64,000 bases of DNA, from IMG/VR virus record IMGVR_UViG_3300037067_021792. One strand, written 5' to 3'. How positions within the stretch are numbered: the stretch's first letter is position 1; each line of letters begins with the position of its first letter. The stretch is from a virus (Duplodnaviria; Caudoviricetes). The notes beneath the pieces were generated by a model. The model saw nothing but the letters and a program-made list of their open reading frames with translations. It made no database searches and was not told the origin of the DNA. Of this stretch, positions 40,450-63,600 are shown piece by piece. A program made the position numbers and the translations under genes.

Positions 40450-40704
40450 ATGAGTAAACTGGACACGCTGCCCCAATGGAGTGTTATTCTAGATGGGGAT
40501 AAAAATAAAAATATTCCGGCACCTGCCCTAATCAAAAAAATATCAGATGTGCTTTTGCTGAGTCCCGACCAAATTAAGCAAAAAATCGAAGAACCTAATG
40601 CAGAATTGGTAACGACTCATTATGAAAAAGCAGAATTAATTCAATTTCTTCTGAAAAAAGTAAAGGTTAAATCGGTTCTCAAGCGACAGGAGTCTGTTCG
40701 ATGA
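40450..40704 (+). CDS. ClpS-like adaptor (degenerate)
   Basis: LPQWSVIL.. and AELVTTHYEKAEL resemble ClpS; HNDD pocket absent. Confidence 0.55.
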   Translation: MSKLDTLPQWSVILDGDKNKNIPAPALIKKISDVLLLSPDQIKQKIEEPNAELVTTHYEKAELIQFLLKKVKVKSVLKRQESVR

Positions 40705-41273
40705 ATGTAATGGTTGTTGACATGATAGAAGGTTTTGCTCGGCAGGGAGCCCTTTCGAGCCCCCGGGTAGCTGCTCTAATACCTAAACAGGTTCATTTTT
40801 TGGAACAAGTTCCTTCTGATACACTCGTGGTGTTTCTGGCAGATGTCCACGAAGATTCAGACCATGAACTAGAGAAGCTACCGAAACATTGTATGGCAGG
40901 CACAAAAGAATCTGAAGTTTGTCCAGAACTGCTCAAGGTTTGTAAGGATAGGGAATTAGATTACATTATTATTCCCAAGCAAACTTGGAGTGGGTTTTTT
41001 GATCCGCCTTTAAAGGATGGGTTAGATGATTTGTCTTCCGATAAAGATTGGGTTGTAATGGGGTGTGTGACAGATATCTGTGTATCAGCCAACGTTTTTG
41101 AGCTTCTATATCGTGGCAAAGATGTAACAGTATTACGAGATTGTGTTGATACTTATGATATGCCTGGACATGATGCTGAGTTAATAAACAAAACATTTTT
41201 TGATAATGTATTTCCATCTCTTGGAGCCAGAGTTGTTGATTCAGACGATTATTACCCTGATAACCACGCGTGA
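40701..41273 (+). CDS. pncA: Nicotinamidase (isochorismatase family)
   Basis: VVDM..GF, D.H..H.E..PKHC, K..SGF, GCVTDICV. Confidence 0.85.
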   Translation: MNVMVVDMIEGFARQGALSSPRVAALIPKQVHFLEQVPSDTLVVFLADVHEDSDHELEKLPKHCMAGTKESEVCPELLKVCKDRELDYIIIPKQTWSGFFDPPLKDGLDDLSSDKDWVVMGCVTDICVSANVFELLYRGKDVTVLRDCVDTYDMPGHDAELINKTFFDNVFPSLGARVVDSDDYYPDNHA

Positions 41274-41354
41274 TGGGGATTTTGAGAAGATGACCGAACG
41301 ATTCATGGACAAATATCGTGCCTCTGGTCGTACCGATCCGTTTGCGAGAGCCAT

Positions 41355-41621
41355 ATGAAACCGACAACCCGAAATTGTCCAGAATGTGATGGAACTGGAC
41401 GTTGCAGCTACGCTCCCGGGAAATGCTATTTTTGTCGCGGTAAAAAGAAGATTAATTCTGATTTTATTAAATGGACCCGATCCAGAGAAAGATACGCCAA
41501 CAGAATATACAATAAAATTGAATCCAATATGGCAACACTACGACAGCAACTAATAGACGAGTGTATGTCTGGTTGGGAACATGCCAATCCTAAGCCAAGC
41601 AAATTTTCTTCAAAGGATTGA
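41355..41621 (+). CDS. Small zinc-finger protein
   Basis: CPECDGTG..CYFCRG. Confidence 0.55.
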   Translation: MKPTTRNCPECDGTGRCSYAPGKCYFCRGKKKINSDFIKWTRSRERYANRIYNKIESNMATLRQQLIDECMSGWEHANPKPSKFSSKD

Positions 41622-42235
41622 AAATGCTTTCTTTCCGGTTTCCTGACAAGCCAACTCGGATAGACTCTAGTTTTGTGCTTGGAATACGAGAAAATGAGTG
41701 GCTATGTCAAGGTAAATATGATGGATGGCGCTGTCAAATCTATCAAGATAATGGGCAATTAAATTTTTTTAGCAGAATCGGTAATAATTTGCCGTCAAAA
41801 ACCAAGTTTCCGCAGCAGATTGTCGATACTGTTAAGGCATTAAATCTACCCGATGGCACTGTTTTGGACAGTGAGTTTGTTGGTCCTAGAGGCAGAACAC
41901 CGCCACAATTATATCTATTTGACTGTCTAGCATTGGAAGGGCAATGGTTAGTTAAACAGCACTTCATCGAGAGATGGAAGACGGTTAATCGATTGTATGA
42001 ATTAATCAGGAATAACTCCCACGTTTGTTTAGCCGAAACAGTAGAGTGCGATTTTTTAAATTATTTTGAGAAATTAAGGCAGCAGTGGTTGGATAATAGG
42101 GATTTTAAGTTGTTCGAGGGTGTTGTAATCAAACGAAAAACCGGAAGCCTGATATTAAATAGAAGTTCTTGTGCTAAGTCGATTCATATGTTTAAATTGA
42201 AATATCGTGAAAATGATGAAGGTAAAAAGTACTAG
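41618..42235 (+). CDS. ATP-dependent ligase-type nucleotidyltransferase (adenylation domain only)
   Basis: KYDGWR, LDSEF, YLFD, EGVVIK, KLK; no OB domain. Confidence 0.8.
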   Translation: MKMLSFRFPDKPTRIDSSFVLGIRENEWLCQGKYDGWRCQIYQDNGQLNFFSRIGNNLPSKTKFPQQIVDTVKALNLPDGTVLDSEFVGPRGRTPPQLYLFDCLALEGQWLVKQHFIERWKTVNRLYELIRNNSHVCLAETVECDFLNYFEKLRQQWLDNRDFKLFEGVVIKRKTGSLILNRSSCAKSIHMFKLKYRENDEGKKY

Positions 42236-42246
42236 GGAGATTGTCC

Positions 42247-42954
42247 ATGAGTATGACTTACTACAAAATCACGAACAAAACCGAAACACATCACGGTCTT
42301 AAATACAAGACAGGATTAAACGTAGACCCTCTACCTTTCAATCCTCGTGGAGATTGTACTCCAGGTGGCATTTATTACACTGATGCCGAGAATATTCTAT
42401 ATTTCCTTGACTATGGTCCCTGGATCAGAGAGGTTATACTACCCAAAGACGCTCAAGTTTATCAAAATCATGGCTTACCTAAGAAATGGAAAGCAGATAA
42501 AGTCAAACTAGGACCACGTCATAAGTGGTGTAGCCTGGAGATTATTAAAAAGCTTATCAAAGAAGGTGCTGACATACACATCGATGATGATTATGTTTTG
42601 AGATTGGCCGCTGAAAGTGGTCATCTAGATGTGGTTAAATATTTGATTAAAAATGGTGCGGATATACATGCTAGGGATGATTATGCTTTAGGATGGGCTG
42701 TTAGCAATGATTATCTAGATGTGGTTAAATACTTGATTAAAAATGGCGCTGATATACATGCTAGGGATGATTGTGCTTTGCGATATGCTGCTAGCAATGG
42801 TCATCTAAGTGTAGTAAAATATCTCGTAGAAAAGGGTGCTGATATACACGCCGTGGATGATTGGGCTTTTCAGTGGGCTGCTATCAGGGGTCATATGGAT
42901 ATAGTAGAATTTTTATCAACTGTCAGTGAGAATGCTAGACTAGGATGGCGGTAG
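42247..42954 (+). CDS. N-domain + ankyrin-repeat protein, copy 1 (four 30-aa units)
   Basis: YYKITN..GGIYYT..KWKAD plus GADIHxxDDxxLxxAAxxGHLxVVKYL. Confidence 0.9.
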   Translation: MSMTYYKITNKTETHHGLKYKTGLNVDPLPFNPRGDCTPGGIYYTDAENILYFLDYGPWIREVILPKDAQVYQNHGLPKKWKADKVKLGPRHKWCSLEIIKKLIKEGADIHIDDDYVLRLAAESGHLDVVKYLIKNGADIHARDDYALGWAVSNDYLDVVKYLIKNGADIHARDDCALRYAASNGHLSVVKYLVEKGADIHAVDDWAFQWAAIRGHMDIVEFLSTVSENARLGWR

Positions 42955-43380: not shown

Positions 43381-43585
43381 GTCTACATTATACCTTTTTC
43401 TTTTGACTTTTGGGATTAATGCGATTAGAATAATTTAAAGGAGAAAAAATGAATTCTTGTGTCGGTATTTCAATAACGCTCGGCGCTTTTTTGTTGTTCC
43501 TGTCTCTTGCTCATATGGGAGATCAATTATCGATTATTGCGAAGCATCTGGAAAATATCTTGGAGCAACTGAAATTGAGGAAGCT

Positions 43586-44251
43586 GTGAAAATCGATGTT
43601 TCGCAGAAATTATCTCCAGCAAACAAGAGAAGCATAGTTTTGTTCGGCGGCGCTTTTGACCCTCCAACCCTGGCGCACTTAGCGGTTGCAAAATTTGTGT
43701 TGAACTCGAATTATGGAATAGATCAGGTATGGTTTACTCCGTGTTATAGGCATCGTTATAACAAAAATATGGCACCATGTGAAGATCGTTTAGCCATGTG
43801 CCAATTGATGTTAGATGATAATCGGATAAAAGTATTTGATTATGAAATTAAAAACCGCCTGCGAGATGGAACATACGATTTTATCAAGAGATTATTAGAA
43901 GAACAACAATTTATTCAAGATAAATACAATTTATCTTTGCTTATTGGAATGGATAATGCTAACACTTTTGATAGATGGGTCAATTCTGAAGAGCTTAAGA
44001 AGCTAATACGATTTATAGTAGTTCCGCGTGCGAGTGAAAGTCCTAATCCGAAAGTGGATTGGTATTTAAAACCGCCGCATATCTTTTTGCAGTCAGATAA
44101 ACAATTGCCACATATATCATCTACTGATGTCAGAAAATTTACTTTTCGTCGGTATGTTGGAACACCGAGTTGTGAGGCTGATGTTCTTAGGATGATAAAT
44201 CCCAATGTTTGGGAATACATTCAGTCTCACGGGCTGTATCAAAATCAATAG
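43586..44251 (+). CDS. nadD: Nicotinate-nucleotide adenylyltransferase
   Basis: GGAFDPPTLAH, R.AM, IGMDN..F.RW, ISSTDVR; probable GTG start at 43586. Confidence 0.88.
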   Translation: MKIDVSQKLSPANKRSIVLFGGAFDPPTLAHLAVAKFVLNSNYGIDQVWFTPCYRHRYNKNMAPCEDRLAMCQLMLDDNRIKVFDYEIKNRLRDGTYDFIKRLLEEQQFIQDKYNLSLLIGMDNANTFDRWVNSEELKKLIRFIVVPRASESPNPKVDWYLKPPHIFLQSDKQLPHISSTDVRKFTFRRYVGTPSCEADVLRMINPNVWEYIQSHGLYQNQ

Positions 44252-44264
44252 TAAAGGAATTGAA

Positions 44265-45020: not shown

Positions 45021-45048
45021 TTGACATCTTTAGGATTTGTGGTATACT
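45021..45048 (+). promoter_or_regulatory. sigma70-type promoter of PARP gene
   Basis: TTGACA-16-TATACT with extended TG. Confidence 0.75.
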
Positions 45049-45076: not shown

Positions 45077-46378
45077 ATGGCAGATGTGATAGAACACAGG
45101 AAATTTGTATTTGTCTCAAACAACCTTAACAGCAACAAGCGATGGGAAGTGCTCTTATACGATAACGATGACGTAGAAGTGAGATATGGCAGAATCGGAA
45201 AATCCTTACAAAGTAAGGTTCATCCCGGTGCTGGTCGTAGAAGGATGGAGTCTTCGATTCGAGATAAAACCAGTCCATCTGAGCATTATGATGGTGGTTG
45301 TTATCGAGAAATCGAAGTGCTTGATACTGCCGCTACATCATCTCCTGCCTGTATATCATCATCAAAATCAGAATTAAAGAAAATTGCTAAGGCGCAAATT
45401 GCTACTTGCCCTATTACACAAAAACTAATTGAATTCTTCACAGAAGTTAATGCTCATAACATTTCTCATGCTACTGGTGGGCGTATTACTTATGATGTGT
45501 CTGCTGGCACATTCCGCACACCTGTTGGTATTGTTACAAAGTCAAATGTCGATGCGGCACGGACTCTGCTGGATGATCTTACGGGGTTTATTACCAAGAA
45601 TTCATTTGGTAAGCCGTTTATTACAACCCTTGAAGATTATTTAATGCTCATACCTCAAGATGTTGGCCGCAAATTTGACCCCCGCGGTTTTTGTGGAAGC
45701 ATTGATGCTATTCAACATCAGAGCCAAATTCTTGATGGATTGGATGCATCAATTCAATCGGTTTTATCAGCTCCCAAAAATGGGAAGAAGAAAGAGGAAG
45801 CGGAAACACCGAAGCTATTCAATGTTAAATTGTCAGTTGTAGATGATAAGGATATTTTAACTGAAATTCGCACATTCTTTAATAAAGGACGGCATCACGG
45901 TCATAGAAGTTACGATCTCAAGATTACAAAGGCATATGCAATCGATATGCCAACAATGAAAGACGCATGGGATCGCGATGGCTCTAAACTAAATAACCAG
46001 TGGAAGTTATTCCACGGGACAAAAGCATCTAATTGTCTTTCAATACTTAAAAATGGGTTTGTGATTCCACCTGCTTCTGCTTCTCATGTATGCGGGCGGA
46101 TGTATTCGAATGGGTGCTATCATTCAGATGAGAGCACAAAATCCCTGAATTATGCTACAAATTATTGGGGCGGAAGGGACGAGGGTAGATATTTTATGTT
46201 TTATAATCTAGTAGCTATGGGTAATTATTTCATTCCTTCTGGTTCTCGGTCTTCTCCTCCGCCTAAAGGATATGATTCATATTTTGCAAAAGCAGGGCAA
46301 TCTGGTGTGATGAATAACGAAATGGTAGTTTTTAGAACCTCCCAAATCCTACCCCTAAATTTATTAGAATTTGAATAA
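45077..46378 (+). CDS. WGR-domain PARP-like ADP-ribosyltransferase
   Basis: SNK.W..YGRIG (WGR); LFHGT, GRMYSNGCY..KSLNY, NNE = H-Y-E triad. Confidence 0.9.
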   Translation: MADVIEHRKFVFVSNNLNSNKRWEVLLYDNDDVEVRYGRIGKSLQSKVHPGAGRRRMESSIRDKTSPSEHYDGGCYREIEVLDTAATSSPACISSSKSELKKIAKAQIATCPITQKLIEFFTEVNAHNISHATGGRITYDVSAGTFRTPVGIVTKSNVDAARTLLDDLTGFITKNSFGKPFITTLEDYLMLIPQDVGRKFDPRGFCGSIDAIQHQSQILDGLDASIQSVLSAPKNGKKKEEAETPKLFNVKLSVVDDKDILTEIRTFFNKGRHHGHRSYDLKITKAYAIDMPTMKDAWDRDGSKLNNQWKLFHGTKASNCLSILKNGFVIPPASASHVCGRMYSNGCYHSDESTKSLNYATNYWGGRDEGRYFMFYNLVAMGNYFIPSGSRSSPPPKGYDSYFAKAGQSGVMNNEMVVFRTSQILPLNLLEFE

Positions 46379-46412: not shown

Positions 46413-46583
46413 ATGGAGAATATTATGAAAACTTCAAAATACAAACTATTAAACGATAGGGAATGGCTCTATCAAAAGCACCATGTTGAAAATCTGGACG
46501 CCAATCAGATTGCCAAACAGGTCGGATGTAATCAGGGTTCTGTTGTGCAATCTTTTAAGCGTTTAGGTATAGTCTTTAAAAAG
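46413..46583 (+). pseudogene. N-terminal HTH of a homing-endonuclease-like gene, cut by a GC-rich segment
   Basis: LLNDREWLYQKH..ANQIAKQVGC..V..KRLGI; composition switches abruptly after 46583. Confidence 0.55.
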
Positions 46584-47854
46584 GTCCGCGAGCGCAAAGT
46601 CGGAGAAACGAGATGAATCTGGACCGATTGGATCAGGACTTGATGGCCTTGAGCGTGCCTACGGTCGCGCCTGGCCCGCACGTGGAAACCCTGGCCGTGC
46701 GTTTGTCGCCTCGCTGGGGAGCCGTTTCGCGCGGACGAATGTCGCCACGCAGACGTGCCGCCCTCTTTGTGGGCATCGCACTCGCCAGCCTATCGGCTGC
46801 CGCCGGCACCTACACCTACCACCGCTACGTATTCGGTACAACTTGGACCAGAGCGTCGTCCGAGCCTGAGACACCCGATGAGCAGGCGTTTGCCGACTTC
46901 GACTCAGCACACCGTGACGAGGCCATCGGACTTTGGAAGAGTGGACAGGTCACACTGCTGGAGCGGAAGCCGGACACCTCCGATCGCATGAGCGTATACG
47001 TGGTTCGCTTCGATTTTCAGGACGGCACATCCGAGACGGCCAAGATGGGCGATCATCCGAATCCGGCCCTGCGCGCCGAATGGCGGCAGATTCGCGACGC
47101 CGGCGGCGGAGAGCTCGTTTCGCTCCGTCGCTTTCCGAACGGAACGGTGATGTATGTCGTCCAGTATGCACTGTCCAGCGGAGAGACGATCCGGCAGCTC
47201 TCCAATGTCCCGCCGATGTCGAAAGCGGACCGATTCGCGGCCTACGACTTCGTGACCGAGCAGATGAAGGTCGGCGGCGGGCGGGTCGTTGGGACGACCA
47301 GCACGGGTATGCTCGTAGTCGAACTTGAGCTTCCGGACGGACACCCGTTCACGGAGGTCGTGCAGCCACCATACCCGCGGGCGGGGCTGACGCCGGAGCG
47401 TCAGGAGGAGATCTCCGAGATGATTGCGCTGGGGCAGGGAGATTTCAAAGACCAGCTCTTCTCAGCGCAAGGGTCGTGTTACGTGGTCGAATATGTGTTG
47501 TCCGACGGAACTTCCTTCCGCATGGGCGGGGATCGGCCCGTGATGACGGATGCCGCGTGGGACGCGGCCCGTGTGGAGGCGGCGACACTGTACGCCGCCG
47601 GCCAGTACACGCGCGAGACGGTCACCGCCACCGACGGTCAGGCGGTTGAGGTCCTTGTGATAACGCTATCGACCGGCTACGTCGCGAAAATCCGCGACGT
47701 GGCCCAAGCGCGGGCGCTGTGGGGGCTCGAGTAATCCGCTGCGCTCCAGGGACCTAAGCGTGAATCGGAGATTGGCCTATGCCATAGCGTAGGACGAGGA
47801 TTCGGAAGAGCAATCAGCCAGGCACTACGCCGCCCGATGCGGGGCGGCGCGGGG
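46584..47854. other. GC-rich foreign segment (~1.27 kb)
   Basis: Sharp switch to GC-rich sequence with G/C third positions; sharp return at about 47855. Confidence 0.9.
46613..47734 (+). CDS. Single-pass membrane protein with five ~50-aa repeats (anti-sigma-like layout)
   Basis: RRRAALFVGIALASLSAAAG TM; repeats G.G....YVV.Y.L.DG; ATGA-coupled to upstream gene tail. Confidence 0.7.
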   Translation: MNLDRLDQDLMALSVPTVAPGPHVETLAVRLSPRWGAVSRGRMSPRRRAALFVGIALASLSAAAGTYTYHRYVFGTTWTRASSEPETPDEQAFADFDSAHRDEAIGLWKSGQVTLLERKPDTSDRMSVYVVRFDFQDGTSETAKMGDHPNPALRAEWRQIRDAGGGELVSLRRFPNGTVMYVVQYALSSGETIRQLSNVPPMSKADRFAAYDFVTEQMKVGGGRVVGTTSTGMLVVELELPDGHPFTEVVQPPYPRAGLTPERQEEISEMIALGQGDFKDQLFSAQGSCYVVEYVLSDGTSFRMGGDRPVMTDAAWDAARVEAATLYAAGQYTRETVTATDGQAVEVLVITLSTGYVAKIRDVAQARALWGLE

Positions 47855-47905: not shown

Positions 47906-47962
47906 GTCGTAGTTTATAGAACGTCTCAGATTCTTCCAACTCATTTGATGGAGTTCTCATGA
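47906..47962 (+). pseudogene. Second copy of the PARP C-terminus
   Basis: VVVYRTSQILPTHLMEFS* versus MVVFRTSQILPLNLLEFE* at the end of PARP. Confidence 0.8.
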
Positions 47963-48258
47963 TGGATTTTTCTGCTGCCTTAATTTTGTTAAAACAAGGT
48001 TGTCACATTCGACGCACCGAATGGACAGCGGGAGCGTATTGGTCTTTGGGTAAAAAATGGATCGAACAAATATCTTTTTACGCTGGTCAAAAAATAACTG
48101 AGCAACGTGGGGCTTTTGAGATAGAGGAAATGTTAGCAACCGATTGGGAGAAAGTAGGTCCTGATTGGTCCGAAGAATATTTCAAACAAGTATCTTGGGA
48201 GAAACATAAGAAAAGTTGTGAAAAATACGCCAAAGAACAGTCGGAGAAAACCGCATGA
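47959..48258 (+). CDS. Tad2-like (DUF2829) anti-defence nucleotide-sponge protein
   Basis: MDFSAAL..LKQG..IRR.EW...EMLATDWE. Confidence 0.65.
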   Translation: MMDFSAALILLKQGCHIRRTEWTAGAYWSLGKKWIEQISFYAGQKITEQRGAFEIEEMLATDWEKVGPDWSEEYFKQVSWEKHKKSCEKYAKEQSEKTA

Positions 48259-48533: not shown

Positions 48534-48587
48534 GCAGGATTTTTCCTCCAGGTATTGTATATAATTACAGCACTTGGAGGATTTTTT

Positions 48588-51500
48588 GTGGCTAGAGAAT
48601 CGTGGTGGGTGATAAATAATACTAAGCGTCCTGTCGTAATTGGTGATCTTCCGAGGGTTCCTACTATTGAGTCGGGCAAGAAGGTAGATTTGCTCCTTTA
48701 TGCCACCAAAGACCAAATAGGACAATCCCAAAATTTAACTGATTTAAGTAAGTCTGGTGCAATCACCATCAAAAAATATGCGGGTATTACCCAAAAAACC
48801 ATTTCTCGTAATCGGTCTGAAGAATCCATCACAAGTGTAGAAGAGGAAGAATTAACAGATGCCTTAACAGATGCCTTAACAGATGCCTTAACAGATTATT
48901 ACACTAAAGATGAGGTCTATACTAAGGATGAGACAGATGATTTATTAGTGGCTGCTCATAACCGTTTAATTGTCAGTGTGGAACCTAAGTCTGGTCAATA
49001 TGATTCTATTGCCGCTGCCATTGCTGCGGTTACAAGTCCCGCAGATGATAACAGATGGGTTATAAAAGTAGAACCAGGTATATACACAGAACCTTTGTGC
49101 GATATCCCATCTTATGTATCTATCGTAGGCGATTCCACTGAGGCGGTGGTTGTTAAACCCGATGGTGACCACAATATATTCAATTTAAGTCAACATAGTC
49201 GTATGAACTTTATGACAATATCGGATGCTCCGTCGGGCCGATACGGGATATATGCATATGATATTGGTAATTTTGCGATATTACATAAAGTTAGTATTAC
49301 TGACTGTGAGACTGGTGTTTACTTGGCATCGAACACTGCTGACTCCTATTTATTTTTAGAATATGTGGATTTCACCGATTGTGATACAGTAGCAAAAGTC
49401 ACTAACCTTGCCTCTAAAACAGCATTTCTCAACGGAGAAAATATTTATTTTGAATACATGACCAAAACGCCTGTTACTGCTGTCACCGTCGATGGTGCTT
49501 ATGCTCAAATAAGTATACAAGGATTAAATGCACTAAGTGCATCCGGCAGCGGAGATGGGACTGCATTTCTTGTCACTAATGGTGGATATTTAAATGTATC
49601 TTCAGGTCGGGCTGAAGATTGGAATATCGCTTTTCGTGCTGATACCAATGGAAGTAATCCGTATATTAAAATTCAATCGGTTGATATAGATGATTGCACA
49701 ACAAATTTAAAAATAGAGAACACAACGGCCGAAGGTTATTTTGCTGGGTTCACTGAAGTTGAGAAAACAGAGATTGCAGCAGCATCGGGATTTTTTATTG
49801 TCAGTAATGATTCGAATATTATAACTGTAGCCAAAAAAGGTGGTGAATATACCTCAGTAAAGGAAGCAATCGACAATATTACAAACGCTTCTGTTACTAA
49901 TAAATATATTATCTTAATTGGGCCGGGTGTGTTTAAAGAAGATACTATCGTAATGAAAGATTATATTTATTTGTTGGGATGTCTTAAATATGCATCTCAT
50001 ATTGAATTAGATACAGCAACATATCCAGCTAGTACTCATCTGATTACTGCTAATGATAAAAAATCTTCTATTTCAGACTGTATATTGGAAGCAAATGGTA
50101 AGACTGTTATTAGGTATACGGGTGGTTCATTCAGGGTTTTGGGATGTCAATTTTATGATTGTACGACTTGTATTGATGCTACTAATATTTCTGGCACCAC
50201 AACAAATAAAATAATTTTGAATGATACCGATTTGGGTATTGGACAAACAGCTACGACATTTATTACAGCTTCAGACGATGGTGCTCATACGGGTGTTATT
50301 TCTTTAAATAATGTAAAAATCACTGATGGCACATTAACTGACTTCGCTCTTGTGGTAGGTTCAAATACTACGCTTAAAATTACTAACAGCAAATTAGATC
50401 AAGACACTTTGGCTGGAACGTGTATCTCCATGAGCAATGGATCTAACTTAGAGATTATTGCATCTACCATATCCGGATTTGCAACTGGTTTTGATTGTCC
50501 GAACGTTGGCTCTGGTCCAGATATAAAAATATCAGCTCTGTGGGATTCTAACACCGAAGATATAGATATAGAGAATCCACTTACGACTGGTACTATTGTC
50601 GGAATTGCTACTGCTACTAAAATAAAAGTAACTGATTTGGCGGATGTGTCATTATCCATAACTGATCCCAATGATGGGAGCCTGAATGTTGTTGGAGATT
50701 ATTATCGAGGCGATACTTGGAACGACCTTACAAATTTTACTCCACTTTTGAATAAAGGGCAGGCGCTAGGAGCTATATATGGTGGAGAATTAGATACTGG
50801 CAGTGGCGACGGATTATATATTAATATATCTAGTGGCAATGGATACTTAATGACAGGGGATTCACCTGATGACCATGCTACTTTTATCGAATGGGATGAC
50901 ACGGCGCTTCTTTTGCCTGCATCTACTTCCTCTTATATTTATGTAGATGATGACGAGCACGTTCATTCGGCGGATACCCTGCCGGATTTTTTTAAGACAA
51001 TTATTCTAGGTAAAGTGCAAACTTCTGCTACAGGAATTTTATTTATACAAGATATCATAGTCGAAGCCAATCAGATGGTGAGTCGTCTTGATAGAACTTT
51101 AAGGTCGGGATTCGGTCCAATTTATTCATCGGGCTCCCAGCTTGCAGAAACTGGTATCCGTGAGCTAAATATTACTCAGGGTAAATACTATTATGGCACC
51201 CATGAATATACTCCTCCAGAAGAAAATACAATTGGATGGACCGCTTGGTATTATAATGGAAGTTCGTGGGTCACTGTCGCGCAGAAACAAGTAGACAAAG
51301 ATAATTATAATAATCTTGCCTCTGGTTTGTCGGCATTAGGAGCTGGGAATTATACAAAACATGCTTTTTATCTTGCGAATGATAACACAACTGGGCATAC
51401 GACTTACCAATTAGTTTATGGTTCTAGTAATGAGGCTGATCCTGCTAACACTGAATTACCTAATCCCCCTGGCTTTTGGACTAGCAATATAGTAAGAGTT

Positions 51501-55115: not shown

Positions 55116-55811
55116 ATGAGACGTAATATATCTCGATCCGGTTCAGTCCGGCGAGAAAAACACGATAGGTATCAGATTAAAAATTGGGTAGATAGGCTGC
55201 CCGATGTTCCATGTTTTGTTTTGGGCAATGCACCAAGTATTTTAGACCACGACATATCTCTACTTGAAAACTATTTTACCATAGGTATTAATCGTGCGTT
55301 TAAATTGATTGATCCAACAGTTTTGCTGTGGCAAGATGCTAGTTTTTGGAGAACAGAGTATTATAATATCCATAATTTGCAAGCACTAAAAATAGCCAGG
55401 GATACTGCCGACCCTAGACGATTATATTTCAATTTTCATTTGAAAGGCGATTATAAATTTGCCAATCCGAAACAGTCTCATATTTTATATGGCAGAGGCA
55501 GTTCCGGACCTATTGCGATCCAACTTGCATATGCTCTTGGGTGTAGACCAATAGTTCTACTTGGCATGGACTGTCAAACGGATGATCAAGGTAGAGGAGA
55601 TTTCTATGGTAACAATAGATTTTGGCTACCCCACACCCTCGATAGTTGCCAGAAGGGGTTAGAATTTATTAGAAAAAACTGTCCAGTGGAAATAATATCG
55701 TGCGGGAATTCGCCCTTGTGGGATCGAAGGGAATTATCGGATGTGTTAAAAAGCCTAAAAGTAAAACCAATGGGTAGGCAGCAATATATCGCTCAACTAT
55801 CTGCTTTTTAA
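55116..55811 (+). CDS. DUF115/MptE/Maf-like glycan-modifying enzyme
   Basis: CFVLGNAPS, TIGIN, SG..AIQLAYALGC.PIVLLGMD. Confidence 0.7.
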   Translation: MRRNISRSGSVRREKHDRYQIKNWVDRLPDVPCFVLGNAPSILDHDISLLENYFTIGINRAFKLIDPTVLLWQDASFWRTEYYNIHNLQALKIARDTADPRRLYFNFHLKGDYKFANPKQSHILYGRGSSGPIAIQLAYALGCRPIVLLGMDCQTDDQGRGDFYGNNRFWLPHTLDSCQKGLEFIRKNCPVEIISCGNSPLWDRRELSDVLKSLKVKPMGRQQYIAQLSAF

Positions 55812-55839
55812 TTGACAATCTCGGAATTTGTGTTATACT
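55812..55839 (+). promoter_or_regulatory. sigma70-type promoter of ankyrin copy 2
   Basis: TTGACA-16-TATACT. Confidence 0.75.
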
Positions 55840-55859
55840 TTACAAGTACGAAAAGGAGA

Positions 55860-56633
55860 ATGGTCGTGCCATTTTACAAAATCACAAATGAAGCTGAAAC
55901 ACACAACGGCTTGAAATACAAGACAGGATTAAACGTAGACCCCCTACCTTTCAATCCTCACGGAGATTGTGAGCCAGGTGGCATTTATTACACTGATGCT
56001 AGAAATATCTTTCATTTCCTCAACTATGGTCCCTGGATCAGAGAGGTTATACTACCCAAAGACGCTCAAGTTTATCAAAATCCTGGCACCCCTCTAAAGT
56101 GGAAAGCAGATAAAGTTAAGTTAGGACCACGCCATAAGTGGAGTAGTGTAGAAGTTCTCAAGAGTCTTATCAAAGAGGGTGCGGATATACATACTAATGA
56201 TGATTATGTTTTGAGATGGGCTGCTGAAAGTGATCATCTAGATGTGGTAAAATACCTGGTTAAAAACGGCGCTGATATACATGCTTGGAATGATTATGTT
56301 TTGAGATGGGCTGCTTGTAATGGTCATCTAAATGCGGTTAAATATCTCGTTAAAAATGGCGCTAATATACACTCTGGGGGTGATTGGGTTTTGATGTCCG
56401 CTGCTGAGGCGGGTCAACTAAGTGTAGTAAAATATCTCGTAGAAAAGGGTGCTAATATACACGCTGGGGATGACTATGCCTTGAGACATGCTGCTTACAA
56501 TGGTCATCTAGATATAGTTAAATACTTGGTTAAAAACGGCGCTAATATACACGCTGGGGATGATTGGGCTTTACGATATGCTGCTTGTAATGGCCATCTA
56601 GATGTGGTTAAATACCTGGGAAGCAACAGATGA
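55860..56633 (+). CDS. N-domain + ankyrin-repeat protein, copy 2 (five 30-aa units)
   Basis: Paralog of 42247; AAGGAG RBS. Confidence 0.9.
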   Translation: MVVPFYKITNEAETHNGLKYKTGLNVDPLPFNPHGDCEPGGIYYTDARNIFHFLNYGPWIREVILPKDAQVYQNPGTPLKWKADKVKLGPRHKWSSVEVLKSLIKEGADIHTNDDYVLRWAAESDHLDVVKYLVKNGADIHAWNDYVLRWAACNGHLNAVKYLVKNGANIHSGGDWVLMSAAEAGQLSVVKYLVEKGANIHAGDDYALRHAAYNGHLDIVKYLVKNGANIHAGDDWALRYAACNGHLDVVKYLGSNR

Positions 56634-56765
56634 GAACCGGACAGGTACTCTATGCGGCAGTAATGAAAGATTCTGGCGAAATATTTTCCCACCCAGAAGG
56701 AGAGATAATGTCGGAGTCCAAAGCTGGGCTGGATTTCTTTGGGAATAGCATTGAAATTATAGACA

Positions 56766-58149
56766 ATCAACTACCCAACCGCTAAAGACGGTCGGGTTTG
56801 CTCCTTAACAGGAACGATTGGCTAGTTGATAGTAGCCTGCCCATCAGGTTTAATCTGCCGCGTAGCGGCAAATTAAAGGAGACAGGGTGTTTAGCTCCTT
56901 TCGCTTCTTGAGTCTGAACATACTTACGAGCTATATTAATAGCAGCATTCCAGTCTGCATCAAATATTACTCCATCAGAAGCGTTGAACCTACATCCCTT
57001 CCGCTCTCCTCCAGCCAGACCACGATGGTCTCTTTGACTAGTATAAGCAGGGTTAACCGTTTTAATCCTCTTCCCTCGAATAGGTGCCTTGTAGGTCAGG
57101 ATGCTCAACAGCATCCCAAAAGGAACTTGACTAAGTCTATTTTTGGAAGATTTACTCTTCTTGTAATTGTTCTTTCTCAAGTTCTTCTTTTTGAGATTGG
57201 ACAAGTCTTCCAAAACAATCGTGTTGGAACTGGCCTCAAGAATTTTGTTAGCCAGATGATGAGACATGTTCCTATTTTTGTTTCTCTCTTGTCTGCGTAT
57301 CTTATGGAGCTTCCTTTTGGAAGAATGAGAATTAGTCTTCTTCCTCTTGGAATTGAGGACTCTTTTAAGATAACGTAGAGCCCGTTTTTGTTGGAGGAAG
57401 TCTTTGTCAGTGAGAGCCAAACCTTCTGATGTGACAGCAAAACGACGTTCGCCAAGGTCCACACCAATACAGGTATTCTCTACAAAAGTAGGCTCAGGAA
57501 CCTCAAAGGAGATTGACAGCCAGAACTGATTGTCTCTGACAAAAACGAGTGGATCACAAGCAGAATACTTTGAGAATAGTTCCTCGAACTTATCATAAGG
57601 CTGGTAGGAACAGATAATACGTTTGCCAGTCGTGGTGAGTTTAATCTGATTATTATCTAGGAAGGTGTAAAGTCTCTTGTCTAGGCGGATGCTTAGGTTA
57701 GTTTGTTGACAAGGTTCTTTTAACTGACTGAGCATTTTACTGGTTTTGAGAGCTTTGTAGGTAGCGTAGACTGAGTTGATAGCTCGTATAATAACTTGTG
57801 AGGGAGCGTTAGGAAAGAGTTTTCTGCACTGGTGATAGTTAGCATCCTGAATATGCTTTTTGTCGAGCTTCTGTCGTTTGAAGGTGTCAACGGATATATG
57901 GTTCCAAGCCTTTTGGTGCTCCAAAAGTGTTGATAAGAGGAGATTGTGGTCCTCTTGGGAGTTGAAGGAGAGTTTGATGTTGTAGGTTATATTGCTCACA
58001 ATTGTTACTTACGGAATGATTATACAAGTTCCTTTGTGGAATTTGAAAAATTAGGAATTATTTTCAAGGAGGCGGATTGCTAACTCCTTGGCTAAAGACC
58101 AAGGAGCTTCCGCAATCCGAACATAGTGAAACGGGTTCGTATGCCCGGT
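56766..58149 (-). mobile_element. TnpB-only IS200/IS605-family element (IS1341-like)
   Basis: Subterminal hairpins with identical loop CTAAAGA near 56774-56796 and 58084-58106; right end GGGTAGTTGAT; no tnpA. Confidence 0.78.
56782..57999 (-). CDS. tnpB: TnpB RNA-guided nuclease
   Basis: IGVDLG, IVLEDL, VNPAYTSQ, DADWNAAINI. Confidence 0.92.
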   Translation of the reverse strand: MSNITYNIKLSFNSQEDHNLLLSTLLEHQKAWNHISVDTFKRQKLDKKHIQDANYHQCRKLFPNAPSQVIIRAINSVYATYKALKTSKMLSQLKEPCQQTNLSIRLDKRLYTFLDNNQIKLTTTGKRIICSYQPYDKFEELFSKYSACDPLVFVRDNQFWLSISFEVPEPTFVENTCIGVDLGERRFAVTSEGLALTDKDFLQQKRALRYLKRVLNSKRKKTNSHSSKRKLHKIRRQERNKNRNMSHHLANKILEASSNTIVLEDLSNLKKKNLRKNNYKKSKSSKNRLSQVPFGMLLSILTYKAPIRGKRIKTVNPAYTSQRDHRGLAGGERKGCRFNASDGVIFDADWNAAINIARKYVQTQEAKGAKHPVSFNLPLRGRLNLMGRLLSTSQSFLLRSKPDRL

Positions 58150-58269
58150 TTAATTGGGTAATGACTAATTTTGATTATCATCCATTAGAGTTATCAGTAG
58201 GAGAATATTTTGAAAAACCCGTTCTTCGTAATTGGAGAACCAGCAAAGGCAGGATCGTAGAGGAATAAA

Positions 58270-58737
58270 ATGTATCTGACATTCGTTGAAAATGCTGATA
58301 AATGGAAGGATACGGTTCGAGGGTATTCAATAGATGATGAAATTATATTGCACGGGAAGCCTCGGGAATTTCCTTGTTTTATGATGCTTGGTAATATCAT
58401 AGGACATGACGCATATTGTAATTTTATTTATGAAGAAGATATTGTCCCTCTTTTGGACTCAAAAAAATACGTAAAAGCAAAGCACGTTGTTGACTTGTTA
58501 AATGAATTGTTTGAATACCAACCTGAATTTATCGCATCTATTGTGAATGCTAGATTTCCCGTAAACACGCTTGTTGCAAATCACCCGTTCATTCAAGTCA
58601 CACCGGATCGAACCGCTGGATTTTTGGGCATTATAAATGGGTTTTTTGGGGAAGTAAAAGATGGACATAGAGGGCACGTTAACGCCATTTTTAATGATGA
58701 TGGAAAACTTATTAAATTTGAAGAGGAGCAACCATGA
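58270..58737 (+). CDS. Hypothetical protein
   Basis: ORF coupled to nadE. Confidence 0.6.
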   Translation: MYLTFVENADKWKDTVRGYSIDDEIILHGKPREFPCFMMLGNIIGHDAYCNFIYEEDIVPLLDSKKYVKAKHVVDLLNELFEYQPEFIASIVNARFPVNTLVANHPFIQVTPDRTAGFLGIINGFFGEVKDGHRGHVNAIFNDDGKLIKFEEEQP

Positions 58738-60446
58738 AAGTGGCGATGTGTCAAGTTAATCCCACCATTGGAGACTTATCTGGTAATCTGAGGATTATGT
58801 CTCAGTCTATTGAATCTGTTTTACAACATGATGTAAGTGTGATATTATTTCCGGAAATGGCAACCACAGGTTATCCCCCGCGTGATCTTTTATATCGTGA
58901 AGATATGTGGGATCAGCAATCTGTGATTGCCGATGAGATTCAGGGTATTTTAAGGCGATCTCAAAAACAAGTAACTGCCATTTATGGTGGTATTGATAAA
59001 GTAAGACTTTCAAATGGGCGATATGCTCGATATAATGCTGCTTATATTGTAGACCCAGATCAAATCAGAGTTATTCACAAAAGGCTGCTCCCTTGCTACG
59101 ACGTGTTTGATGAAACTCGATATTTTGTCCCCGAAACTGGACCATTAACACCTATTAAGTTAGTTGGAGTTGAAGGCAATTGTGATATTCTTATCTGTGA
59201 GGATATTTGGAATCATAATTTTCAAGGGGTTACTTGGCAATCTCCAGCACCATATAACATCGATCCAGTATCTGAATTGAAAGGCACTGGGCCATTGTTT
59301 GTTTTGAACGCCTCGCCTTTCTGGCGGGGAAAGATCAAAACCACAATTGATCTTTTGCAATCAGTGCAGTCCAAAATTAAACGACCTGTTCTTTGGTGTA
59401 ATCAGGTTGGTGCCCACGACGATATTGTAACTGGCGGGTATTCTATGGCAGTGGGCCAAAACGGACTTTATATGTTGAAGCCATTTGCTGAAGACATGAT
59501 AATTGTTAATGTCATGGATAACAAGAATGTTGTATGTCACCCCATTGATATCGGTTTCCGTTTTCCGTCTTTCGGAAAACAAATTGAATTTCAGGAACAT
59601 TTTGAGGAGTGGTGTGTATATCAGTCCCTAAAGCTACATCTTTCTGATTACTGTCGCCGCACTGGCTTTAAGGATGTAGTTCTTGGTTTGTCTGGCGGTA
59701 TTGACAGTGCATTAGTTGCCACGATTGCGGCCGATGTATTAGGCAGTGAACACGTATATGCCATTACTATGCCATCAAAATATTCATCAGAGGGTAGTAT
59801 TAAGGATTCTGAGAAACTTGCAAAAAATTTACACATCCGGTTATTCAACCAGCCAATAGGTGAAATACATCAATCATTTTTGGATTCATGCCTAAGCGGT
59901 GGAATACAAAAATTTAATAATCCTCTTACCGATGAGAATATACAGCCGAGAATAAGAATGATACTCCTAATGGCGTGGAGCAATGATCACAAGGCATTGC
60001 TTTTGACTACAGGCAACAAGTCAGAAATATCGATGGGATATTCTACATTATACGGCGATATGGCAGGTGGTGTAGCACCAATTAGCGATTTATGGAAAAC
60101 AGAAGTGTATAGTCTATGCCGATTCATTAATTATTATCGCGGAGAAATTATACCTCAACAAATTATTGATAAACCTCCATCGGCAGAATTGAGACCCGAC
60201 CAAAAAGACACTGATAGCCTACCGCCATATGAAATTTTAGATCCTATCTTAGAATCTATAATTAGTAATGAACCAATAGAGAAAACGTATGAAATTGCAA
60301 ATGGTGCGAATGTAAATAAGATTTTGCATCAGTATACCATATCAGAATTCAAAAGACAACAATTGCCGATAGGTCCAAAAGTATCTCTAGTATCTTACGG
60401 TAGTGGTAGAAGAATACCAATTGCAGCGAAAGTGACAACAATTTGA
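58734..60446 (+). CDS. nadE: Glutamine-dependent NAD+ synthetase
   Basis: Nitrilase triad FPEM/HKRLLP/ICED; LSGGIDS, ENIQPRIR, TGNKSE, PPSAELRPDQKD. Confidence 0.95.
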   Translation: MKVAMCQVNPTIGDLSGNLRIMSQSIESVLQHDVSVILFPEMATTGYPPRDLLYREDMWDQQSVIADEIQGILRRSQKQVTAIYGGIDKVRLSNGRYARYNAAYIVDPDQIRVIHKRLLPCYDVFDETRYFVPETGPLTPIKLVGVEGNCDILICEDIWNHNFQGVTWQSPAPYNIDPVSELKGTGPLFVLNASPFWRGKIKTTIDLLQSVQSKIKRPVLWCNQVGAHDDIVTGGYSMAVGQNGLYMLKPFAEDMIIVNVMDNKNVVCHPIDIGFRFPSFGKQIEFQEHFEEWCVYQSLKLHLSDYCRRTGFKDVVLGLSGGIDSALVATIAADVLGSEHVYAITMPSKYSSEGSIKDSEKLAKNLHIRLFNQPIGEIHQSFLDSCLSGGIQKFNNPLTDENIQPRIRMILLMAWSNDHKALLLTTGNKSEISMGYSTLYGDMAGGVAPISDLWKTEVYSLCRFINYYRGEIIPQQIIDKPPSAELRPDQKDTDSLPPYEILDPILESIISNEPIEKTYEIANGANVNKILHQYTISEFKRQQLPIGPKVSLVSYGSGRRIPIAAKVTTI

Positions 60447-60465
60447 AAGAATTGGAGAATAAAGC

Positions 60466-61071
60466 GTGAATCCTATTATTGGCATTTGTGGCGGAATAGG
60501 CTCCGGCAAATCTCATGTTGCATTACTTTTTGAATCATTGGGATGTGCTGTTTTTAATGCAGATCAGGAGGCGCATAATTGTTTGTCTGGGGATCGGGAA
60601 GTTATAGAACAAATTCAACAGAAATTGGGATATGAATGCTATCCATCTATGGGCTTTGGGTGGCCACAGCCGGATCACAAAAAGATAGCCGAAGTAGTTT
60701 TTGGTTCTCCGGAAAAACTTAAGATTCTTGAATCGATAGTAATACCGCAAGTTATAGACCGATGTTTGCATTTTATATGTAAATATCGCAGTAAGCATCC
60801 CATAGTATTAGATGCGCCATTACTATTTGAGAGAAACATTCACGGATTATGCGATACAATTGTTTTTGTTTCTGCATCTTTTGAAACTCGATGTAAGAGA
60901 GTAGAAAAACGGGGATGGTCCAAACAATACTTGTCATTTCGAGAATCGTTTCAGATTCTTCCTGCCGTGAAACAACAATTGTCGAATTATATCATTAATA
61001 GCGAGGATGGCTCTGATTTAGTGGAACAGGTCTCGGCAACGATGAATAAAATTTTGGAGAAATACCTTTGA
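60466..61071 (+). CDS. coaE: Dephospho-CoA kinase
   Basis: [26 protein letters not shown]. Confidence 0.88.
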
Positions 61072-61262
61072 AAGCAGCGTTTTGTGGCTCATTTGATCCA
61101 ATTACGTTAGGGCATATCGATATTATAGAGCGAGCATCTAGAATGTTTGATTTTCTTTTGATTGGTATAGGACAAAATACTGTGCCATGTCGGCTGGTTT
61201 CGCTGGTTTCGCTGGTTTCGCTGGTTTCGTCAAACCGGGGGCAAGTTTTTGATTTGGCTTGA
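61068..61262 (+). pseudogene. coaD: Truncated phosphopantetheine adenylyltransferase
   Basis: [28 protein letters not shown], then similarity is lost at a tandem repeat. Confidence 0.8.
61193..61229 (+). repeat. 9-bp tandem repeat GCTGGTTTC x4
   Basis: Direct reading. Confidence 0.92.
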
Positions 61263-61286
61263 CATCTCAAAATCTTGGAGTATACT
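61259..61286 (+). promoter_or_regulatory. sigma70-type promoter
   Basis: TTGACA-16-TATACT; ATG 7 nt later, possibly a leaderless mRNA. Confidence 0.75.
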
Positions 61287-61292
61287 TAACAT

Positions 61293-61754
61293 ATGAGAGC
61301 AGTTCTGAGTAAAGCGCATTACAGTCGGCCACTTGACCGTCCACATAGAATACGTTTATGCGATTACGAATATCAATTTTGTTCCCTATCTACTCTCACT
61401 AAGGACGAGTGGCGTTTTATTCATAAGTATATGAGTTTTCCTGGTGGTGGCATACGATACTGGAGAAACAGTCGTCAGCGTGGTATGCGTATGGCATTAT
61501 TGTATTATGATAGGCATTTAATTGCTTGGTGTGCAATTGACACTGAATATTCAGGTGCCCTTGGAGCATTGTCAAAAAATCCAGGTGTAACTTGTTGGGT
61601 TTTAGATTCGTGGAGAAACAAAGGTATAGCAACAAGAATCATCGATGCTGCATTAAAAAGATACAGAATTCAGGGAAAAGTCGATGTGTATAATCGGAAA
61701 ATGAAACATATTTGTAGTAAACTTGGGCACAATCCAGAAAACATTTGGAATTAG
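61293..61754 (+). CDS. GNAT acetyltransferase
   Basis: LIAWC..CWV..WRNKGIATRII acetyl-CoA motif. Confidence 0.7.
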   Translation: MRAVLSKAHYSRPLDRPHRIRLCDYEYQFCSLSTLTKDEWRFIHKYMSFPGGGIRYWRNSRQRGMRMALLYYDRHLIAWCAIDTEYSGALGALSKNPGVTCWVLDSWRNKGIATRIIDAALKRYRIQGKVDVYNRKMKHICSKLGHNPENIWN

Positions 61755-61765
61755 GAGGTGTCATT

Positions 61766-62452
61766 TTGCTTCGGACAAAATTTTACAAAATCACAAATGA
61801 AACCGAAACACACAATGGCTTGAAATATAAGACAGGATTAAACAGAGACCCCTTGCCTTTCCATCCTCATGGAGATTGTACTCCAGGTGGAATCTACTTT
61901 ACTGATGCCAAGAATATCTTATATTTCCTTGACTATGGTCCCTGGATTAGAGAGGTTACACTACCCAAAGATGCTCAAGTTTATAAAAATCCTGGCACCC
62001 CTCTAAAATGGAAAGCAGATAAAGTTAAGTTAGGACCACGTCATAAGTGGTGCAGCTTGGCGATTGTTAAGAAACTTATTAAAAAAGGTGCGGATATACA
62101 CATCGATGATGATTATGTTTTGAGATTGGCTGCTTGTAATGGTCATCTAGATGCGGTTAAATATCTCGTTAAAAATGGAGCTGATATACATGTTAGGAAT
62201 GATTATGCTTTAGGATGGGCTTCCAACAATGGTCATCTAGATATAGTTAAATACTTGCTTAAAAACGGTGCTAATATACACTCTGGGGGTGATTATGCCT
62301 TGAGATTGGCTGCTGAAAATGGCCATCTAAGTGTAGTGAAATACTTGGTTAAAAACGGCGCTAATATACACGCCGGGGATGATTGTGCTTTGAGATGGGC
62401 TGCTAGAAATGGCCATCTAGATGTGGTTAAATTCCTGGAGGATAACAAATGA
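61766..62452 (+). CDS. N-domain + ankyrin-repeat protein, copy 3 (four 30-aa units)
   Basis: Paralog; AGGAGG RBS; stop overlaps the pncB start. Confidence 0.9.
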   Translation: MLRTKFYKITNETETHNGLKYKTGLNRDPLPFHPHGDCTPGGIYFTDAKNILYFLDYGPWIREVTLPKDAQVYKNPGTPLKWKADKVKLGPRHKWCSLAIVKKLIKKGADIHIDDDYVLRLAACNGHLDAVKYLVKNGADIHVRNDYALGWASNNGHLDIVKYLLKNGANIHSGGDYALRLAAENGHLSVVKYLVKNGANIHAGDDCALRWAARNGHLDVVKFLEDNK

Positions 62453-63600
62453 TAATCAATTCTTTGTTAGACAACGACCTTTACAAATTTTGCATGGGTC
62501 AATGCGTTTTCTTCGGAAAATATGATGGAGTATCATTCCAAAACGTTGATGTCGAATACGAATTTATTAATAGGGGTGATACGCAATTTCCAGATGGGTT
62601 TGCGAGAAGTCTGGAAGACGAAATCGTTGGCTTGCACTGTCTGCGGTTAAATTCCGATGAGGCGGATTACCTTCGCAATATTCGGTTTATGAAACGTGCC
62701 TACGTAGATTTCTTGAGTTCTTACTCTTTTGATTCTAGTGAAGTAAAAGTATGCCAATCAGGCGGGGATTTAAAGGTTACAATATCTGGTCCCTGGTATC
62801 GCACTATTTTCTGGGAAGTCCCCCTGATGGCGATTATCAGTGAGTTGTATTATAAAATAGCCGGTGTTTCTCCCAAGTTCGACTATATACTGAAAACTAA
62901 GGAAAAAGCATTTACACTATCCAATGCGGGATGTAAATTTTCTGATTTTGGCACCCGCCGAAGATTTTCGATGGAAGTTCATGATGACATAGTTGATATA
63001 TTCCGGTATCTAGCCGTAGGAACCAGTAACGTTTATTTAGCCAAGAAATATGAAATGACTCCAATTGGGACTATGGCTCATGAAATGTTTATGGCTATCG
63101 CAGCTTTGTTTGGATACAAGAGAGCAAATCAGATTGTACTTGATTTGTGGAATGAAGAGTTTAATGGCGATTTGGGAATTGCCCTGTCGGATACGTTTAC
63201 TAGCGATGTGTTTTTTGAACAATTTAATATGAGAAACTCCAAGCTTTTCGACGGAGTTAGACAGGATTCTGGCGATCCGATTCAATTCGCCCAAAAGACA
63301 ATTAATCATTATCAAAAAATGCGAATTAATCCCATAAGCAAAACCATCATTTTCAGCGATTCACTAGATGTCAATAAAGCAATTCAAATTGCAGATTTCT
63401 GTAAAGGCAAAATTCAGTGTGCCTTTGGTATTGGAACTCACATGACGAATGATGTCGGGCATAAACCGCTAAATATGGTAATCAAAATGTCTAAATGCAA
63501 TGGTAAATCGACCGTAAAACTATCAGATACACCAGGTAAACACACTGGCGATCCTAATGAGATTGTGAAGTGTGAACAAGAGCTTGGAATCGAGGAGTGA
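62449..63600 (+). CDS. pncB: Nicotinate phosphoribosyltransferase
   Basis: SLLDNDLYKF.M, DFGTRRR, GTSNV, GTMAHE, RQDSGD, FGIGT, KLSD. Confidence 0.95.
   Translation: MIINSLLDNDLYKFCMGQCVFFGKYDGVSFQNVDVEYEFINRGDTQFPDGFARSLEDEIVGLHCLRLNSDEADYLRNIRFMKRAYVDFLSSYSFDSSEVKVCQSGGDLKVTISGPWYRTIFWEVPLMAIISELYYKIAGVSPKFDYILKTKEKAFTLSNAGCKFSDFGTRRRFSMEVHDDIVDIFRYLAVGTSNVYLAKKYEMTPIGTMAHEMFMAIAALFGYKRANQIVLDLWNEEFNGDLGIALSDTFTSDVFFEQFNMRNSKLFDGVRQDSGDPIQFAQKTINHYQKMRINPISKTIIFSDSLDVNKAIQIADFCKGKIQCAFGIGTHMTNDVGHKPLNMVIKMSKCNGKSTVKLSDTPGKHTGDPNEIVKCEQELGIEE

Follow-up and report, generated by a model that had tools for sequence, protein, structure and literature searches.

Four genes of a predicted deamidating route to NAD+

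The window analysed here, a 64,000-nucleotide (nt) stretch of the IMG/VR virus record IMGVR_UViG_3300037067_021792, encodes a PncA-like protein that is predicted to be a nicotinamidase, together with PncB, NadD and a glutamine-dependent NadE. The window is densely packed, with a G+C content of ~39% and 98 open reading frames (ORFs) in a non-overlapping set, 86 of them on the plus strand. An original prediction, made from the same DNA, had located the four genes, and all of them lie on the plus strand at exactly the coordinates given there (Table 1). A ribosome-binding site of the GGAG/GAGG type stands 6-12 nt 5' of each, and pncA, nadE and pncB share a 4-nt overlap with the ORF that precedes them. 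The co-occurrence of four successive pathway steps among 98 ORFs is not due to chance. The linkage is seen again in L021, a relative of the window, and in other huge phages. Family models and alignments also back the gene identities and intact catalytic motifs that had been proposed, and they support the logic of a pathway from nicotinamide through nicotinate, nicotinate mononucleotide (NaMN) and nicotinate adenine dinucleotide (NaAD) to nicotinamide adenine dinucleotide (NAD+).

NadE contains both a CN_hydrolase and an NAD_synthase domain and passes the cut-off of NF010588 (479 bits). In the alignment with the solved glutamine-dependent NadE 5KHA (E = 1.5e-88), the FPE, HKR and LICED motifs of the Glu-Lys-Cys triad and the SGGIDS loop are all in register. 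PncB, with NAPRTase_N and NAPRTase domains, is far above the cut-off of TIGR01514 (269.6 bits) and matches the solved nicotinate phosphoribosyltransferase (NAPRTase) 2IM5 with an E value of 1.3e-87; its GTMAHE motif aligns with GTHPHE, and the His motif (phospho-His) is present. This protein is 45-50% identical to the PncB of huge-phage contigs. NadD reaches 63.7 bits against Pfam CTP_transf_like and keeps both signature motifs, GGAFDPPTLAH of the (H/T)xxH type and ISSTDVR of the ISSTxxR type. Its top PDB matches are all bacterial NadD (E down to 8e-15), and it is ~41% identical to the NadD of the phage LR756501.

The Asp-x-His ... His metal site separates nicotinamidases from most other isochorismatase-like hydrolases. 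In the PncA-like protein, D48-V-H50 and H63 align with the metal-site residues D52-W-H54 and H71 of Pyrococcus horikoshii PncA (1ILW), and in the same alignment D7, K93 and C127 fall on the positions of the Asp-Lys-Cys catalytic triad (D10, K94 and C133). D7, H50, E56 (a further residue of the metal site), H63, K93 and C127 are invariant in a family alignment of 29 sequences, of which 90% or more have D48. An AlphaFold (AF2) model (predicted local distance difference test score, pLDDT, of 93.7) matched solved nicotinamidases in Foldseek at probability 1.00 with template-modelling (TM) scores of 0.70-0.77, namely those of Streptococcus pneumoniae, Bacillus subtilis, Streptococcus mutans, P. horikoshii, yeast and Acinetobacter baumannii; uncharacterised isochorismatase-like hydrolases were matched as well. 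Furthermore, on at least 24 contigs a clostridial member of the subfamily, 212 amino acids (aa) long, is followed after 14 nt by a NAPRTase gene, and the stop codon of another bacterial member (L115, 258-1846) runs into the start of an NAD kinase gene. Taken together, motifs, modelled fold and gene context lead us to predict with high confidence that the 190-aa protein is a nicotinamidase of a divergent subfamily.

The clostridial isochorismatase-NAPRTase pair was also seen to follow directly after an rnf cluster (L112-L114, 6001-8110). The subfamily may be annotated only generically, since it scores far under NCBI's PncA model. A tblastn search of phage records with the window protein gave no match, and no relatives were found by a pattern scan of IMG/VR.

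Conserved linkage in relatives and in other huge phages

L021 is a 36-kb contig from another sample and a ~50%-identical relative of the window. Within 13 kb it carries homologues of a PARP-like protein (66% identity), the PncA-like protein (49%), an MptE-like protein (67%), the glutamine-dependent NadE (57%) and PncB (50%). Its PncA-like gene is separated by 1.7 kb from that of NadE and by 6 kb from that of PncB, and has the MptE-like gene directly 3' of it. The distance between PARP and PncB is ~10 kb in L021, and PARP homologues are found ~3-7 kb from PncB in three further IMG/VR lineages.

A survey of PncB-bearing phage records showed that the gene set recurs beyond these lineages. The Sinorhizobium phage Phosso, the uncultured phages LR756501 (735 kb) and LR756500 and the Agrobacterium phage Atu_ph07 each encode an isochorismatase, an adenylyltransferase-like protein, PncB and NadE, and in LR756511 the isochorismatase alone is missing above cut-off (Table 1). 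Every isochorismatase found in the surveyed phages shows the D...DxH...H...K...C pattern. A MutT-like gene is included in the Phosso cluster, between the nicotinamide-mononucleotide adenylyltransferase (NMNAT) and PncB. The NadD of LR756501 mentioned above is an additional gene at 31.1 kb, ~390 kb away from the cluster of that genome. By this search LR756501 holds the whole deamidating set, whereas it had been listed with only nadD (Li et al. 2024; PMC11662467).

Nature of the element

The element is very probably a phage, in keeping with the phage-like nature stated in the original prediction, and the window is most likely part of a huge (>300 kb) uncultured tailed phage of groundwater and landfill communities. 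Its gene organisation, its matches to phage families and its huge-phage relatives support this view. The genes are short and run largely on one strand, and most ORFs are ORFans without a Pfam or PHROG match; ten large ones left unexplained were also scanned against PHROG, with no hit. Phage families of PHROG are matched by the clamp loader and by DnaK. Among GenBank phage records, the best matches to DnaK, NadD and PncB come from 'uncultured phage' genomes of 460-735 kb, and the DnaK, which is of bacterial type, is 55% identical to that of LR756501. Two IMG/VR genomes that carry terminase encode PncB orthologues (45-50% identity); one measures 365 kb and is rated 100% complete, the other measures 369 kb and has direct terminal repeats. 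No ribosomal or other cellular marker gene was found in the 64 kb. We rejected a giant eukaryotic virus, which the ankyrin, PARP and Hsp70 genes had suggested, in view of the Shine-Dalgarno sites, the 4-nt gene overlaps and the presence of a sigma factor, beta clamp, RuvC and GroES/EL of bacterial type.

Three studies yielded groundwater and landfill metagenomes that contain near-identical DNA. In the ENA assembly ERZ27247358, the PncA-like gene lies on a 268-kb contig (k141_1154289) and the pncB end on a 46-kb contig (k141_1967289) that is identical to the window across their overlap. L017, a piece of an ENA contig, has the same sequence as window positions 56300-64000 and extends 9.6 kb further, into a region with an NAD kinase gene ~7 kb past the window end (Table 1). 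The ENA contig copy L019, compared with the window across 20.6 kb, shows 1707 mismatches; an indel in the gene of the 1644-aa protein is one possible cause. A megablast search of GenBank phages with 24 kb gave no match, and an exact 32-mer search of the JGI metagenomes had a 1.2-kb contig as its sole match.

Neighbouring genes

The two NAD gene pairs are separated by genes for the PARP-like protein, a Tad2-like protein, the 1644-aa protein, ankyrin proteins and TnpB. The element's own PARP, on which the original prediction had drawn, is thus indeed encoded beside the pathway genes. It aligns with the helical and catalytic domains of PARP1 and keeps the His and Tyr of the H-Y-E motif, the alignment ending before the Glu. 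The assignment of the Tad2-like protein, which passes the family cut-off, is a modest one, since a sequence search for solved relatives gave none. Between the PARP and Tad2-like genes, at 46500-47750, lies an island with a G+C content of 56-69% against the background of 39%, filled by a 373-aa ORF (46613-47734) that has no Pfam, PHROG or Rfam match. This island looks like a recent foreign insertion.

Ankyrin paralogues are scattered among the NAD genes, and one of them overlaps the start of pncB. The MptE-like protein has its nearest Atlas clusters in Uroviricota (91-100%) and has WaaZ- or glycosyltransferase-like structural neighbours. We also considered a role of this protein as a pyrophosphokinase of phosphoribosyl pyrophosphate (PRPP) or ADP-ribose, which the phage origin of the nearest clusters and the WaaZ-/glycosyltransferase-like neighbours leave unsupported. 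Over 311 aa, the 1644-aa protein shares 38% identity with a protein of LR756501, and a pattern scan of IMG/VR found no relatives of it. Its language-model neighbours are phage tailspike/beta-helix proteins with scores under the 0.9 threshold, which makes them a lead only. In addition, the window encodes an NAD-dependent UDP-glucose dehydrogenase, and the HSP20, GroEL and GroES genes form a minus-strand island amid plus-strand genes.

A tRNA with a CUA (amber-reading) anticodon is encoded in the window, in which TAG is the stop codon of 15 of the 98 ORFs. The PARP gene of L021 has an in-frame TAG (..MKAA*DRDG..) at L021 positions 5773-5775, where the window PARP is uninterrupted; this codon may be read through with the help of a suppressor.

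Table 1. Positions of the genes in the window, in its extension and relative, and in the other phages surveyed
Sequence	Feature	Position	Strand	Basis or remark
Window	PncA-like protein, predicted nicotinamidase; divergent isochorismatase-family cysteine hydrolase, 190 aa	40701..41273	+	PF00857, 83 bits; conserved motifs; AF2/Foldseek; gene context
Window	NadD, nicotinate-mononucleotide adenylyltransferase, 221 aa	43586..44251	+	GTG start at 43586, frame open from 43457; TIGR00482, 108.9 bits
Window	NadE, glutamine-dependent NAD+ synthetase, 570 aa	58734..60446	+	NF010588, 507 bits
Window	PncB, nicotinate phosphoribosyltransferase, 383 aa	62449..63600	+	TIGR01514, 423.6 bits
Window	PARP-like ADP-ribosyltransferase, NAD+ consumer releasing nicotinamide	45077..46378	+	PF00644, 67.8 bits
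Window	Tad2-like (Thoeris anti-defence 2-like) small protein	47959..48258	+	PF11195, 29.1 bits (cut-off 25)
Window	CoaE, dephospho-CoA kinase, cofactor synthesis	60466..61071	+	PF01121, 106 bits; right after nadE
Window; L017	Ankyrin-repeat paralogues, ~230-270 aa (n=5)	window 42241-42954, 55812-56633, 61745-62452; L017 7527-8228, 15227-15910		
Window; L021	MptE-like protein	window 55116-55811; L021 10607-11311		PF01973, marginal
Window	1644-aa protein	48555-53489		No Pfam or PHROG match
Window	Chaperones DnaK, HSP20, GroEL, GroES	807-2672 and 32517-34944 (-)		
Window	167-aa protein	37885-38388		phrog_335 ('phosphatase'), 57 bits; no Pfam match
Window	tRNA with CUA anticodon	32407-32476	-	ARAGORN: tRNA-Pyl; Rfam: tRNA, 36.9 bits
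L017	Second TnpB, T4-type RNA ligase 1, NAD kinase, ankyrin protein, queuosine-salvage protein (PF10343)	9091-17142		Window-equivalent ~65.4-73.4 kb
L017	NAD kinase	14391-15218		Window-equivalent ~70690-71517
Phosso	Isochorismatase; NMNAT; PncB; NadE	268773-269420; 269431-270027; 271720-273042; 273584-274414		Isochorismatase annotated 'hydrolase'
LR756501 (loci L024, L107)	Isochorismatase; adenylyltransferase-like; NadE; PncB	423001-423675; 424048-425028; ~428800-429441; 430260-431429		Adenylyltransferase-like match weak, 19 bits
Atu_ph07	Isochorismatase, adenylyltransferase-like, PncB, NadE			NadE ~85 kb from the other three
LR756500	Isochorismatase, adenylyltransferase-like, PncB, NadE			Within ~43 kb
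LR756511	Adenylyltransferase-like, PncB, NadE			No isochorismatase above cut-off; NadE of glutamine-dependent type

Proposed role and alternative explanations

In our view, the best explanation of this locus, to which we give a probability of roughly 0.7, is that a huge phage carries the genes for a deamidating NAD+ salvage route of its own that recycles nicotinamide. The reading builds on the gene identities, the intact catalytic motifs, the conserved linkage and the recurrence of the set in other huge phages, all of which are observed, and its steps follow from the established biochemistry of the four enzyme families. The PncA-like hydrolase would convert nicotinamide to nicotinate, which PncB would join to PRPP (with ATP) to give NaMN; NadD would then adenylate NaMN to NaAD, and the glutamine-dependent NadE would amidate NaAD to NAD+. 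The NAD kinase past the window end could carry NAD+ on to NADP+. During infection, such a route would recycle nicotinamide freed by NAD+ cleavage, so that the NAD(P) pool stays up, the nicotinamide coming from the phage's own PARP and from NADase defence effectors of the host. The PARP is a good candidate for the NAD+ drain, since it is linked to PncB both in the lineage of the window and in the three other IMG/VR lineages. Host NADases are the other candidate, with the Tad2-like gene as the only local hint.

Several points weigh against this reading. Instead of a single operon, there are two gene pairs with 14.5 kb between them, and NadD stays marginally under the cut-off of its equivalog TIGR00482 (112.45 bits). 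With 22 bits, the PncA-like protein does not reach the 174-bit cut-off of NF008623, the PncA equivalog of NCBIfam, and it is only 22-26% identical to characterised or solved nicotinamidases. No capsid, portal or terminase gene lies within the 64-kb window, and none of the 120 matches listed in a search with a huge-phage TerL is on the element's contig. Three huge phages were taken as references, and each of them has homologues of only 6-9 of the 98 ORFs, a distant kinship. The nearby genes for CoaE, the NAD kinase and the chaperones would suit a general support of metabolism, or a broader module for cofactors and proteostasis, as well as they would suit counter-defence. Finally, the enzyme activities, the expression of the genes during infection and the NAD+ drain that they would compensate for are inferred, as is a counter-defence role.

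The poor score against NF008623 would suit a three-step Preiss-Handler route that starts from nicotinate only, the isochorismatase-family protein being some other amidohydrolase that offers no entry from nicotinamide. The top sequence and structure matches do include an N-carbamoylsarcosine-amidase-related protein besides the uncharacterised isochorismatase-like hydrolases, and several huge phages with PncB and NadE are devoid of any isochorismatase. We nevertheless regard such a route as improbable, given that the nicotinamidase-type metal ligands are conserved together with the triad, that the best structural matches include solved nicotinamidases, and that members of the family adjoin pncB in bacteria and NadE and PncB in L021. 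The lack of virion and packaging genes in the window could likewise mean that the contig is not viral at all and comes from a cellular chromosome, a megaplasmid or an episymbiont genome, with NAD genes of a housekeeping nature; DnaK, GroEL, beta clamp, sigma factor and RuvC occur in cells too. The strand bias, short genes and ORFan content, the clamp loader of a phage family, the Uroviricota relatives of the MptE-like protein, the tailspike-like lead for the 1644-aa protein (below threshold as it is) and the absence of cellular marker genes from the 64 kb make this origin highly improbable.

A further explanation shares the mechanism of the salvage reading and differs on the selective reason only. 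The genes may serve a general auxiliary metabolism, in which a cofactor set (NAD+, NADP+ and coenzyme A) and chaperones sustain a long huge-phage infection or complement a host without salvage, with no specific link to NADase immunity. This is a serious possibility, though we give it less than even odds. CoaE lies directly 3' of nadE, the NAD kinase and queuosine-salvage genes follow downstream, and the window encodes DnaK, GroEL/GroES, HSP20 and the NAD-dependent UDP-glucose dehydrogenase. Complementarity between the NAD pathways of phage and host has been described (Li et al. 2024; PMC11662467), and the host pncA-pncB1-nadE operon is up-regulated in infection by the jumbo phage PA5oct (PMC7318152). 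The Tad2-like anti-Thoeris gene and the PARP between the pathway genes speak against it, as does the entry substrate, nicotinamide, which is exactly what NADase effectors release; neither argument settles the matter. At the other end, the deamidating route might be a fourth NAD+-reconstitution counter-defence against the NADases of Thoeris, DSR and SIR2-HerA, wired in this lineage to the phage's own PARP, with the PncA-like enzyme both feeding salvage and removing nicotinamide, a product inhibitor of PARP-type enzymes. If true, this would account for the way in which PARP, PncA-like, NadE and PncB genes stay linked, but as a whole we consider it rather unlikely.

Comparison with known systems

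Depletion of NAD+ is one of the main ways in which bacterial immunity acts, and experiments have established three pathways by which phages rebuild NAD+. NAD+ synthesis of the Nampt type in jumbo phages was interpreted early on as a response to NADases of the TIR and SIR2 kinds (Iyer et al. 2021; PMC7824862). NARP2 (Nampt + Nmnat; NadV/NatV in Vibrio phage KVP40) likewise rebuilds NAD+ from nicotinamide and PRPP in a phage. The predicted window route differs from it in passing through nicotinate, NaMN and NaAD, in employing four enzymes and glutamine, and in using a NAPRTase rather than Nampt. Indeed, no Nampt was detected among the scanned ORFs of 36-64 kb, the phosphoribosyltransferase there being the NAPRTase equivalog, and the window ORFs that were scanned contain none of the Pfam families of Adps/Namat (NARP1) or PnuC/NadR (NARP3). 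The window set therefore belongs to no NARP as currently defined, and the preprint on NARP1 and NARP2 makes no mention of the PncA, PncB, NadD and NadE enzymes. The original prediction had called the route a third phage NAD-restoring system, a place already taken by NARP3, the PnuC + NadR pathway reported in 2026 (PMC13464706). NARP1, NARP2 and NARP3 are experimentally shown counter-defences, the window route a possible one.

Nor is the route new to phages, as had been supposed. A 2023 wastewater study described four genes converting nicotinamide to NAD+ in the huge phage 5-SewaE and framed them as auxiliary metabolism (Viruses; PMC10747093); the likeness to the window is one of description, the genes being unnamed in that paper. 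Li et al. (Microbiome 2024; PMC11662467) then reported complete salvage or Preiss-Handler pathways in 174 of 668 jumbo phages, with the pncB-nadD-nadE cluster of Kuafu_71 as an example. These authors introduced the term 'NAD-jumbo phages', noted PARP genes and proposed a counter-defence against NAD+ depletion of the Sir2 type. If their viral nature is as we suppose, the 268-kb and 46-kb contigs fall under this term, which covers phages of >200 kb with pncB, nadD and nadE. Like the phages of Li et al., the window carries pncB, nadD and nadE along with PARP and other NAD consumers, and the same combination of self-supply and counter-depletion is proposed for both, on purely bioinformatic grounds. 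The window adds to their gene sets the putative nicotinamidase step, phage pncA being mentioned only in passing in their paper. Its genes stand in two separate pairs, unlike their clusters, and its groundwater and landfill origin differs from the animal gut origin of their phages, the genome being only distantly related to published ones.

The same four families are also present in the deposited genomes of Phosso, LR756501, LR756500 and Atu_ph07, which each combine an isochorismatase of PncA motif with an NMN/NaMN adenylyltransferase-like protein, PncB and NadE. Their PncB proteins are 28-48% identical to that of the window. Their nicotinamidases belong to another subfamily; tblastn with the window protein finds none of them. 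In Phosso and LR756501, a short NadE of the ammonia type takes the place of the glutamine-dependent enzyme, and the four genes form tight clusters of 5.6-8.4 kb instead of two pairs. Bacterial pncA-pncB(-nadE) operons share the enzymes and the chemistry, including the clostridial PncA-like members directly upstream of pncB; the window set, in contrast, is virus-borne, and genes for PARP, Tad2-like, ankyrin and TnpB proteins lie in between.

The literature that we searched contains no report of a deamidating route making NAD+ in phage infection or protecting a phage from NAD-depleting immunity. By sequence, the four-step route is widespread in huge phages, and the window set is a further example of the Preiss-Handler and nicotinamide-to-NAD+ gene sets already reported from them, neither a new kind of system nor one that opens a new question. 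What is particular to it is the divergent PncA-like subfamily, the conserved linkage to PARP and the nearby NAD kinase. As a motif-complete example of the route that includes a divergent predicted nicotinamidase and has PARP, Tad2-like and NAD kinase genes as neighbours, it offers a possible test case among the known huge-phage sets.

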